Sequence record: OP292222.1
Direction: 5' to 3' (one strand)
DNA from: Escherichia phage Esco_phi_B-01
DNA: 64,000 bases
In this document: in pieces, positions 10,348 to 19,225 of the stretch
Position numbering within the stretch: the first letter of the stretch is position 1
Layout: each line of letters starts with the position of its first letter
Position numbers and translations under genes: made by a program
The notes under the pieces: generated by a model
Databases searched by the model: none
What the model was told of the DNA's origin: nothing
Seen by the model: the letters and a program-made list of their open reading frames with translations, nothing else

Positions 10348-10395
10348 GTTTACAAGGTCTATAGGCATGATACTATAGACCTATCAAAACAAACT
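10348..10395 (+). promoter_or_regulatory. PeSL early promoter cassette
   Basis: GTTTAC 10348-10353, 17-nt spacer, TACTAT 10371-10376; inverted repeat GGTCTATAG/CTATAGACC. Confidence 0.65.
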
Positions 10396-10646: not shown

Positions 10647-10695
10647 GTTTACAACGGGCCTTAGTGATGATACTATAGCCCTATCAAAACAAATG
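10647..10695 (+). promoter_or_regulatory. PeSL early promoter cassette
   Basis: GTTTAC 10647-10652, TACTAT 10671-10676, followed by CTATCAAAACAAA as in the other copies. Confidence 0.6.
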
Positions 10696-12148: not shown

Positions 12149-12222
12149 GGCCCTGTAGCTGGACGGTCAAGCGAGCGACTCATAATCGCTGGATGGTGGT
12201 TCGATTCCACCCAGGGCCACCA
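12149..12222 (+). tRNA. tRNA with CAU anticodon (Met, or Ile if lysidine-modified as in T4 tRNA-Ile)
   Basis: acceptor GGCCCTG/CAGGGCC, anticodon stem AGCGA/TCGCT with loop CTCATAA, T-arm GGTGG-TTCGATT-CCACC, 3' CCA encoded. Confidence 0.8.
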
Positions 12223-12226
12223 ATTT

Positions 12227-12301
12227 GGATGTGTAGCTCAGTGGTAGAGCAGTTGACTGTTAATCAATTGGTCCATGGTTCGAATCCATGCATGTCCGCC
12301 A
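12227..12301 (+). tRNA. tRNA-Asn (GUU)
   Basis: acceptor GGATGTG/CATGTCC with G-U pairs, D-arm TAGCTCAGTGGTAGAGC, anticodon loop CTGTTAA, T-loop TTCGAAT, CCA encoded. Confidence 0.75.
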
Positions 12302-12305
12302 AATA

Positions 12306-12381
12306 CGAGGCATAGCTCAGAAGGAAGAGCAACGGTCTTCTAAACCGTAGGTCGTAGGTTCGATCCCTACTGTCTCGACCA
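12306..12381 (+). tRNA. tRNA-Arg (UCU)
   Basis: acceptor CGAGGCA/TGTCTCG, D-arm TAGCTCAGAAGGAAGAGC, anticodon stem ACGGT/ACCGT with loop CTTCTAA, T-arm GTAGG-TTCGATC-CCTAC, CCA encoded. Confidence 0.8.
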
Positions 12382-12551
12382 AACAAGAAACCGGGTCGCT
12401 ACCGGTAAGTCGTCGGACTGAAGTTCCCTGAATAAGACCCGACTTTAAGGAGTACATGAGTTCCTCTTAAAGTCCCTTATCTCACAGCTGAAACGGCGCA
12501 CAGAACACTTGCCTAGCAGGTGGAACCCCGACAAGGTTACCCTAGGTTAAA
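12382..12551 (+). ncRNA. candidate stable small RNA downstream of the tRNAs
   Basis: about 170 nt with no credible ORF, GC-richer and self-complementary, ending at a terminator; T4 carries stable RNAs of unknown function in its tRNA cluster. Confidence 0.3.
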
Positions 12552-12579
12552 GGCCCTTCCGAAAGGTTGGGCCTTTTTT
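12552..12579 (+). terminator. rho-independent terminator
   Basis: GGCCCTTCCGAAAGGTTGGGCC followed by a T run. Confidence 0.7.
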
Positions 12580-12580
12580 G

Positions 12581-12588
12581 TATAAATA
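12581..12588 (+). promoter_or_regulatory. late promoter TATAAATA
   Basis: exact TATAAATA 27 nt upstream of the ATG at 12615. Confidence 0.55.
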
Positions 12589-12614
12589 TACAGTAAACTA
12601 ACTTAGGAAATAAT

Positions 12615-13169
12615 ATGAAACTTTTAAAATATTTGAGTTGGATTCTGTTGGTCCCACTAGATTTTATCTCTATGGTTCTGGCTGTTATCCTTGCACCTTT
12701 TGTAGTTCCTTTCCACAATAAAAAGACTGGTAAATTGCCATACGGTTTTGATTGGATGATGACATACGATAATCCAATTGACGGTGATAAAGGTCATATT
12801 AAACGTTGGGCTAAAATCAGGAAAATGCCTGGTGGTGTTTATCTCCAGAGAGTAGCTTGGCTATGGCGAAATAAAGCTTATAACTTTGCTTATCATAAAC
12901 TAGGACGTGATTGTAGTTCAGAATTCCATTATCGTGGTAATCCTGACGTAGAATCAGGTTCTCCTGATAAAGCCCACCATGGTTGGTTATGGATGTGGAA
13001 TGATGATGCCTGGGGTGTATTTGCTTCAGTTCCTTATCTTAAGGTCGGCGGAATCACATTTTACCTTCGCGTGTACTGTGGATGGAAGCTTAAGAGCCTT
13101 TTGTCTCGTAAAATCCCTAAAGCTATGTTAGCCTTCCACGTGAACCCGTTCCGGTTCTACAAGAACTGA
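12615..13169 (+). CDS. hypothetical N-terminally membrane-anchored protein, late-promoter driven
   Basis: 184 aa; N-terminal hydrophobic helix; flanked by duplicated terminator/late-promoter cassette. Confidence 0.55.
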   Translation: MKLLKYLSWILLVPLDFISMVLAVILAPFVVPFHNKKTGKLPYGFDWMMTYDNPIDGDKGHIKRWAKIRKMPGGVYLQRVAWLWRNKAYNFAYHKLGRDCSSEFHYRGNPDVESGSPDKAHHGWLWMWNDDAWGVFASVPYLKVGGITFYLRVYCGWKLKSLLSRKIPKAMLAFHVNPFRFYKN

Positions 13170-13174
13170 TTTAC

Positions 13175-13202
13175 GGCCCTTCCGAAAGGTTGGGCCTTTT
13201 TG
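13175..13202 (+). terminator. rho-independent terminator (duplicate of the 12552 copy)
   Basis: identical hairpin GGCCCTTCCGAAAGGTTGGGCC plus T run. Confidence 0.7.
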
Positions 13203-13210
13203 TATAAATA
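13203..13210 (+). promoter_or_regulatory. late promoter TATAAATA
   Basis: exact TATAAATA 29 nt upstream of the ATG at 13239. Confidence 0.55.
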
Positions 13211-13238: not shown

Positions 13239-13862
13239 ATGAAAACTTACAATGAATTTTTGAACGAAAGCGTTCTGAGTGAAGCCGGCTTGCGCATGAC
13301 TAAAGATATGTGGCAAGCTGCTTATGATAAAATTTCCGGGACTAAAACCACTACCGAGTTCTTTAAAAACGTTTATGATATGTATGGTTTTGATACTAGT
13401 AGCCAGAAAGAATATTACAAAGCTTCCAAAGCTTTTAAAGATATCGTAGCCGGTGGCGCTACTAAGCCTGCTAAACCAGCTAAAGCTCCTGTTGCTAAAC
13501 CTGCAGCCCCAACCAAAGTTGCACCACCTAAACCTGCTGCAGCGCCTAAAGCAGAGCCTGTAAAAGAAGCTCCTAAATCTAAAATCAAGTTTGACACCAC
13601 TACTATTGTTAAAAAATATAACCAGCTGGCTTCTTTGGTTTCTGAAATCGAAACTGAAACTAAACATCTCGTTCGAGAATTCAACGCTCTTCGTAACGGA
13701 CAGCACATTAACAACCTAGATACCCCAGACCTTTATCGCCTCTATCTGACGGTTGAAGGCCTTAAGTATACCCAGCCTATGCATGAAGAAATTGATAACA
13801 AACTTCGTCAAGCCCGCCGCCTTGCAGGTGACGCAGCACAGTTCGAAAAGACTCGTAAATAA
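13239..13862 (+). CDS. internal-protein-like protein with capsid targeting sequence and Ala/Lys/Pro-rich repeat segment
   Basis: MKTYNEFLNES N-terminus; low-complexity PAKPAKAPVAKPAAPTKVAPPKPAAAPKAEP; late promoter upstream. Confidence 0.6.
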   Translation: MKTYNEFLNESVLSEAGLRMTKDMWQAAYDKISGTKTTTEFFKNVYDMYGFDTSSQKEYYKASKAFKDIVAGGATKPAKPAKAPVAKPAAPTKVAPPKPAAAPKAEPVKEAPKSKIKFDTTTIVKKYNQLASLVSEIETETKHLVREFNALRNGQHINNLDTPDLYRLYLTVEGLKYTQPMHEEIDNKLRQARRLAGDAAQFEKTRK

Positions 13863-13865
13863 TGA

Positions 13866-13888
13866 AAGGAGACTTCGGTCTCCTTTTA
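13866..13888 (+). terminator. rho-independent terminator
   Basis: GGAGAC-TTCG-GTCTCC plus TTTT. Confidence 0.7.
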
Positions 13889-13921
13889 GGGGGTTTAGAC
13901 CAAAAATAATTTCACAAAGTT

Positions 13922-13968
13922 GTTTACACCTCCTTTAAACATGATACTATAGACCTATCAAAACAACA
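13922..13968 (+). promoter_or_regulatory. PeSL early promoter cassette
   Basis: GTTTAC 13922-13927, TACTAT 13945-13950, CTATCAAAACAAC. Confidence 0.6.
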
Positions 13969-15380: not shown

Positions 15381-15404
15381 GGGAGACTTCGGTCTCCCTA
15401 TTTG
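15381..15404 (+). terminator. rho-independent terminator
   Basis: GGGAGAC-TTCG-GTCTCCC then TATTT. Confidence 0.65.
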
Positions 15405-19179: not shown

Positions 19180-19225
19180 GTATACAAGGTCTATAGGTGT
19201 GATACTATAGACCTATCAAAACAAC
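19180..19225 (+). promoter_or_regulatory. degenerate PeSL cassette (-35 mutated to GTATAC)
   Basis: GTATACAAGGTCTATAGG...TACTATAGACCTATCAAAACAAC, same as other PeSLs except in the -35. Confidence 0.45.

Follow-up and report, generated by a model that had tools for sequence, protein, structure and literature searches.

A 623-bp DUF7338 gene module in a Dhakavirus, probably inserted by recombination at a shared terminator hairpin: a late-promoter version of PeSL shuffling

In the genome of Escherichia phage Esco_phi_B-01 a gene for a DUF7338 protein lies between two exact copies of a hairpin sequence, and we consider it highly probable that a 623-bp module carrying this gene was inserted by recombination at a terminator hairpin that the module and its target share, as a late-promoter version of the shuffling of PeSL (promoter-early stem-loop) cassettes described in T4-type phages (Arbiol et al. 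2010, PMC2839356; Comeau et al. 2014, PMC4122927). The window that was analyzed is a stretch of 64,000 nucleotides from this phage (OP292222.1), and its best match is Escherichia phage JS98 (96% identity), which makes the phage a Dhakavirus, that is, a JS98-like, T4-type phage. The module, at 12574-13196 (623 bp), would be a self-contained expression module that consists of a T-run, a late promoter TATAAATAT, a leader with a Shine-Dalgarno (SD) sequence, the DUF7338 gene, and a terminator hairpin. It would have entered downstream of the terminator of the tRNA/rnaD unit via homologous recombination in the 22-24-nt hairpin, either by one-crossover integration of a circular intermediate or by a double crossover with a donor genome, these being the likely routes. 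Such an insertion would put a hairpin on both sides of the module, and recombination between the two copies would delete the module and leave one chimeric hairpin behind.

The 22-mer GGCCCTTCCGAAAGGTTGGGCC is present as two exact copies on the + strand of the window, at 12552-12573 and 13175-13196, and it still matches just these two places in the 64 kb when up to three mismatches are allowed. It was matched 0 times in 100 dinucleotide shuffles, the chance expectation being 0. The repeat search gave a direct repeat of 32 nt (12547-12578 and 13170-13201; 94% identity) with a spacing of 623. Copy 1 runs on as T6-GTATAAATA-T and copy 2 as T5-GTATAAATA-G, giving repeat units of 37 nt and 36 nt, respectively, with a one-T indel between them; the homology between the copies stops just 3' of TATAAATA and, on the left, about 5 nt before the stem. 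The sequence-only reading of this DNA had reported a repeated string that flanks the 184-aa ORF at 12615-13169, and it was right in this because the exact copies are there with the ORF, which starts with ATG, between them; its figure of 38 bp for the length of the cassette has to be replaced by the 37 and 36 nt that the units measure.

Each copy folds into a hairpin with a 5-bp GC stem, a 2x2 U.U internal loop, 2 bp, and a GAAA loop, and is followed by a U-run. The stem is GGCCC/GGGCC and the core of the hairpin family is CCGAAAGG. The fold energy is -17.8 kcal/mol for copy 1 and -15.3 kcal/mol for copy 2, with z from -3.6 to -3.9. The hairpins were folded directly because the consensus terminator scan needs an uninterrupted stem and the internal loop made it miss both of them. 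A GC-rich hairpin with a U-tract at both copies predicts a terminator role, and homologous hairpins are annotated as potential or predicted terminators in T4 (X03016) and in SA35RD. The hairpin with its T-run occupies 12552..12579 on the + strand in copy 1 (hairpin, 12552-12573), which would be the left recombination site, and 13175..13201 on the + strand in copy 2 (hairpin, 13175-13196), which would be the right recombination site and is the predicted terminator of the cassette. Both copies are intergenic and immediately 5' of a promoter box, as are the stem-loops of PeSL cassettes. This hairpin family is found in 1-4 places per T-even genome and in two places in the 64-kb window. At gathering thresholds, Rfam returned three tRNAs only, with no match to the hairpins or to the rnaD-like RNA.

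The locus belongs to the variable region that extends from trna.2 to e.6, in which there are at least four gene arrangements among Dhakaviruses, as expected of a hyperplastic region. The transcription unit that hairpin copy 1 ends starts with a cluster of tRNA-Met, tRNA-Asn, and tRNA-Arg at 12149..12381 on the + strand (ARAGORN; Rfam RF00005, 62-73 bits). It is followed on the same strand by a homologue, about 120 nt long, of the T4 species 2 RNA (rnaD) at 12383..12503, the boundaries of which we infer from the T4 annotation, and by a conserved 48-nt 3' trailer at 12504..12551 that in T4 and RB27 comes after rnaC and leads to the terminator. Both assignments come from the alignment with T4 X03016 and RB27, which both annotate rnaD and rnaC. 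Species 1 RNA (rnaC, about 137 nt) is cleanly missing in Dhakaviruses, in which the trailer and the hairpin are kept and the trailer is directly after the rnaD homologue. Rfam has no family for rnaC or for rnaD. Copy 1 is the predicted resident terminator of the tRNA/rnaD transcription unit because the homologous hairpin is labelled 'pot. terminator' in T4 X03016. This T4 terminator after species 1 RNA is the positional and sequence homologue of copy 1 and has the same 48-nt trailer ahead of it, but it reads AGCCCCGACCGAAAGGTTGGGGCT-T5 where the window has GGCCCTTCCGAAAGGTTGGGCC-T6, its stem is fully paired, there is no TATAAATA behind it and no DUF7338 gene there, and the Dhakavirus unit is without rnaC.

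Copy 1 is followed by the TATAAATA late-promoter box of the cassette at 12581..12588 (+ strand) and then by the leader TACAGTAAACTAACTTAGGAAATAAT; the same box with a similar leader is found at the rI site of Mosigvirus described below. Copy 2 is followed by a second TATAAATA late-promoter box at 13203..13210 (+ strand) and then by GATAAGTTAATTAACACAGGAAAC. This is the resident box of the MKTY gene, an ORF of 207 aa (MKTYNEF..., phrog_2280) at 13239..13862 on the + strand, which is the resident gene after the promoter of the empty site. The distance from the box to the ATG is 26 nt for the first and 28 nt for the second box and neither has a -35 element, as expected of T4-type late promoters. 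Over the whole window TATAAATA is not enriched (7 found and 6.8 expected), and four of the six boxes on the + strand, including both boxes here, are 23-28 nt 5' of an ATG that opens an ORF of 149-207 aa; the two further + strand boxes among these have a spacing of 23-26 nt to the ATG. There was no sigma70-like early promoter (TTTACW-N17-TAYWAT in its T4/PST form, with an AT-rich tract upstream) at the two copies in the window, the sole resemblance being a weak 9/12 match at 12587-12614 that overlaps the leader. From these sequence features we infer gp55-type late transcription from both boxes. Copy 1 would then terminate the tRNA/rnaD transcript and copy 2 the DUF7338 transcript and, with a gp55-type late promoter after each hairpin, the DUF7338 and MKTY genes would be expressed late, insulated, and as monocistronic transcripts.

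The 184-aa protein encoded on the + strand at 12615..13169 belongs to Pfam DUF7338 (PF24027; 212.6 bits against a cut-off of 27, residues 1-183, E 4.6e-63) and to phrog_2143, families that are both of unknown function. All 38 homologues found (38/38) carry PF24027, and they come from many genera of Straboviridae, from Felixounavirus, and from a few bacterial records. The AlphaFold model, made with 33 sequences, has a pLDDT of 96 and shows a helix at residues 2-33 followed by a domain of helices and beta-sheet. Among the homologues T-x-D...G-D-x-G-H...W and WLWRN..Y are examples of motifs that are invariant. The PDB gave no relative by sequence or by fold and only uncharacterized viral relatives turned up, and there was no similarity to a nuclease or a transposase in Pfam, in PADLOC, or in the sequences and folds of the PDB. 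Thus, the earlier description of a protein with an N-terminal TM helix and no assignable function agrees with the Pfam assignment to a DUF, with the model helix at 2-33, and with the lack of a fold match in the PDB. As far as the evidence goes, DUF7338 is probably a late-expressed, membrane-anchored accessory protein.

It had been suggested that the interval 12589-13174 should be compared in related phages because it might be an indel bounded by the repeat, and the predicted outcome is what was seen. In six Dhakaviruses that do not have the gene (CLB_P2, dhaeg, dhabil, IME08, SHP1, and C6), junction-specific BLAST matched the empty site as one uninterrupted piece. The junctions were read in three of them (CLB_P2, IME08, and dhaeg), and exactly the DNA equivalent to 12589-13174 is gone and one chimeric copy is left, in which the left flank and the T6 of copy 1 are joined to the TATAAATAG flank of copy 2. 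The empty junction in these three phages reads ...TTAAAGGCCCTTCCGAAAGGTTGGGCC-T6-GTATAAATAGATAAGTT... and from the hairpin it goes straight to the MKTY gene. Tequatrovirus RB27 has rnaC, the homologous hairpin, T5, and GGTATAAATAGATGAGTTAATTAACACAGGAAAT-ATGAAAACTTA, and the DUF7338 gene is not at this site. Therefore the single-copy arrangement with a resident late promoter is not confined to Dhakavirus and exists outside this genus too. Among the records of Dhakavirus and Gaprivervirus 53 carry the gene (at least 90% aa identity) and 8, which come from 6 phages, have the empty junction; filled sites thus seem to be in the majority here, and individual empty alleles may be deletions and not states that precede insertion. 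A scan of IMG/VR gave 18 loci, mostly in genomes already seen.

A second locus was found in Mosigvirus. In LF82-3 a DUF7338 gene with 74% aa identity follows the lysis-inhibition gene rI. It is some 16 kb away from the rnaC region and lies between two copies of AGCCCCTTCCGAAAGGTTGGGGCT with a period that is again 623 bp. After the left copy come T5-GTATAAATAT and a leader similar to that in the window, and after the right copy comes a resident early promoter, GTTTAC...TATAGT. RB69 has the empty rI site, with a single hairpin and the same early promoter. About 23 of some 160 matches at the Mosigvirus level are filled, and most of the others show a 1178-bp span, which is read as the empty site in RB69. 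The terminator/early promoter unit at rI in RB69 shares the hairpin core CCCTTCCGAAAGGTTGGG with the window and would thus be a second landing site for the 623-bp module, but it is at another locus, an early promoter comes next, and its stem is the variant AGCCCC/GGGGCT. As in PeSL cassettes, the end points of the indel are within the motif and one motif is left at the empty site, both at the tRNA/rnaD site and in the comparison of RB69 with LF82-3. The modules of Dhakavirus and Mosigvirus are only about 74% identical and therefore transfer between the two sites, in whichever direction, was not recent. As judged by the comparison of the rI and tRNA/rnaD sites, the unit that moves is the T-run, TATAAATAT, the leader, the DUF7338 gene, and the hairpin, and its target would be any copy of the hairpin family. 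The proposal made from the sequence alone, that the direct repeats are what insertion or duplication of a module by homologous recombination would leave, thus gains support from the empty alleles and from this second, independent 623-bp indel at rI.

These comparisons also separate the two late promoters. The TATAAATA boxes have separate origins: the upstream one goes with the cassette and the downstream one serves the MKTY gene as its resident promoter, since RB27 has the same single-copy arrangement without DUF7338 there and the same box and leader are right after the single hairpin in CLB_P2, IME08, dhaeg, and RB27. A duplication of the whole 37-nt unit was considered and rejected because the right flank of copy 2 is resident (RB27 and CLB_P2) and the right flank of copy 1 moves with the gene (LF82-3). 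The proposal that each copy of the repeat is a terminator fused to a late promoter therefore holds in that a hairpin with a U-run and a TATAAATA is present at each copy, but the promoters are not copies of one another, as seen from RB27 and the other single-copy phages, and the duplicated unit is the hairpin with its T-run; from the comparison of Mosigvirus and RB27 it follows that the boxes differ in origin.

In most of the lineages examined, the gene is on the same strand as tRNA genes, either inside their cluster or no more than about 1 kb downstream of one of them. These lineages are Dhaka-, Gapriver-, Gelderland-, Karam-, Pseudoteven-, and Slopek-type phages and Felixounavirus, with PG7 and Alf5 among the phages concerned, and the exception is the rI-site copy of Mosigvirus. 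This linkage could be due to co-transfer or to a functional link. A bolder interpretation is that one specific family of terminator hairpins is the homing target of the 623-bp unit, a non-autonomous mobile cassette that has moved between loci (tRNA/rnaD and rI) and between T-even genera, with DUF7338 functionally tied to phage tRNA clusters; we regard this as conceivable but rather doubtful.

Among the alternatives to insertion at the hairpin, it is improbable, though it survives better than the others, that there was deletion only, that is, that the two-copy state is ancestral, for example from an old tandem duplication of a terminator/promoter, and that the single-copy genomes arose by repeat-repeat deletion without any mobility of the module. 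T4-type phages readily delete DNA between direct repeats that are 623 bp apart, and the filled sites do seem to outnumber the empty ones among the Dhakavirus and Gaprivervirus records. However, RB27, which is of another genus, is single-copy with the same resident promoter and the same gene start, the same module is at the unrelated rI locus where most Mosigvirus records, including RB69, are empty, and the upstream promoter and leader move with the gene whereas the downstream promoter remains with the resident gene. Still less probable is it that the hairpin is the site of a dedicated nuclease or recombinase, such as a nearby homing endonuclease of the SegB type, or of cruciform cleavage, with the module spreading by break-induced gene conversion and not by general recombination at short homology. 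The phage AnYang does have, about 380 bp upstream of the cassette, a homing endonuclease gene within its tRNA region, the inheritance of the T4 tRNA region driven by SegB is cited in PMC4122927, and the PeSL authors have raised the possibility of a protein that binds the stem-loop (PMC2839356). But in the window there is no ORF for a nuclease, a recombinase, or a transposase in or next to the module, the sole ORF of which codes for a membrane protein, no endonuclease is listed beside the Mosigvirus site, and short homology is said to suffice for recombination in T4 (Singer et al. 1982, quoted in PMC2839356). The module is thus without the nuclease, transposase, or recombinase of its own that an autonomous element would have. 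An origin from a homing endonuclease, to which AnYang had drawn attention, was rejected since none was found in or beside the module in the window. In AnYang the gene (AnYang locus 2099-2764) replaces part of the tRNA cluster, and its product could promote local gene conversion. Finally, convergent regulation, in which both genes need a strong terminator and a late promoter and the hairpins are identical by selection for one optimal terminator without being recombination sites, is very improbable because, although TATAAATA is a fixed consensus that can recur without shared origin and the two boxes do differ in origin, the stem is identical in 22/22 positions including the non-canonical 2x2 U.U internal loop with 0 chance matches expected, the boundaries of the indels fall on the hairpin at two loci, and the other terminators of the same region have unrelated stems. 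Recombination at the shared hairpin, both inserting and deleting the module, is likeliest because the anatomy of the locus matches the PeSL model.

Relatives that carry the gene with junctions unrelated to the repeat had been named in advance as the finding that would speak against this proposal, and such relatives exist, upstream of the gene in QL01 and vB_EcoM_005 and downstream of it in VR20 and VR5. We read them as further rearrangements of the same modular region and not as a refutation. In QL01 and vB_EcoM_005 the order is rnaD, hairpin, late promoter, a 154-157-aa variant of MKTY, an unrelated terminator, DUF7338, hairpin, and early promoter; thus, the MKTY variant precedes DUF7338 in swapped order, and upstream of DUF7338 there is another terminator and no TATAAATA. 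The start codon of MKTY in QL01 is joined to a late promoter and leader of the DUF type, a fusion that implies a crossover in the SD/start region GGAAATAATATGAAA that both genes share. JS10 has kept both hairpins, has an early promoter after copy 2, and is missing MKTY and e.8. Hairpin copy 2 goes along with the DUF7338 gene in JS10, QL01, vB_EcoM_005, and LF82-3. VR20 has an unrelated hairpin downstream of the gene. In VR5 the DNA between the middle of hairpin 2 and the last 30 nt of the MKTY ORF has been deleted, and at the junction there is the microhomology GCCCTTCCGAAAGG / GCCCAGTTCGAAAAG (GCCC..CGAAA), so that the hairpin takes part in illegitimate recombination as well. In the distant phages STP4-a, PG7, RB43, and Alf5 the gene is present without any hairpin of the family. 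Since the gene has one family hairpin or none in some relatives, the hairpin pair is not obligatory to the gene.

Mosaicism is also seen gene by gene in the neighborhood, e.8 being 88% identical to that of JS98 and 96-97% identical to those of IME08 and dhaeg. The 207-aa MKTY ORF has a central Ala/Pro/Lys-rich linker of low complexity, and its variants of 153-157 aa have only the first 8-16 or so codons in common with it, making this another mosaic gene. Next to it, at 13865..13966 on the + strand, is a classic PeSL-type unit made up of a hairpin GGAGACTTCGGTCTCC, an early promoter TTTACA-16-TACTAT, and a repeated leader. The hairpin GGAGACTTCGGTCTCC represents a second family, at 13868-13883 and 15382-15397, 1.5 kb apart, which brackets e.8, an orf133 homologue, and a 222-aa ORF. 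The -10 element and leader of the early promoter, GATACTATAGNCCTATCAAAACAA, occur four times in the window (10369-10392, 10669-10692, 13943-13966, and 19201-19224) with 0 expected by chance, and they are promoter repeats of the classic PeSL type within this hyperplastic region.

In RB49 and phi1, cassettes of a stem-loop and a promoter lie around variable ORFs, crossovers map to the stem-loop or its immediate vicinity, and excised mini-circles that carry one chimeric cassette have been demonstrated (PMC2839356), and the model was later widened to T4/PST and to middle promoters (PMC4122927). The likeness of the present locus is close: a terminator stem-loop is right upstream of a promoter, an SD sequence, and a start codon, the region is hyperplastic, the variable ORF has no known function, the motif delimits the indels that separate close relatives, and a single chimeric copy is at the empty site. 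A strict PeSL arrangement with this hairpin is found elsewhere, since an early promoter GTTTAC...TAYWAT comes after copy 2 in JS10, QL01, vB_EcoM_005, and LF82-3. Unlike in PeSL cassettes, the hairpins in the window precede the late box TATAAATA and not a sigma70-like -35/-10 pair, the homology that the copies share hardly extends beyond the stem-loop and the T-run, and the family is small (1-4 copies per genome) and does not form a dense series. The promoter-middle stem-loop (PmSL) of vibriophage nt-1 (PMC4122927) is similar in that a stem-loop is combined with a promoter class other than early and the role in shuffling is kept, but it has a Mot-box middle promoter, belongs to another phage group, and has no late version in that paper. 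Late promoters are not mentioned in PMC2839356 or PMC4122927, which describe the early and middle types, and a literature search for a late-promoter/terminator shuffling cassette gave the PeSL papers only. Thus, PeSL-type modular shuffling with a late promoter is a variant undescribed in these two papers, and to call the cassette a late-gene counterpart of the PeSL cassettes, as had been done, is apt because hairpin and promoter units flank variable ORFs in a hyperplastic region.

No established view is changed by these findings. They extend the PeSL/PmSL concept to genes that are predicted to be transcribed late, and they indicate that the stem-loop and not the promoter is the element that counts for exchange. 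They flag DUF7338 as a widespread, mobile membrane protein that is predicted to be expressed late. The hairpin could be a predictable landing pad for the engineering of therapeutic T-even phages. Two independent loci, each with filled and empty alleles and with junctions resolved to the nucleotide, provide a clean natural example of the gain and loss of an accessory gene in T4-type phages, in which short shared regulatory hairpins would serve as portable recombination sites and a gene that has its own promoter and terminator would be expressed and insulated at any landing site.
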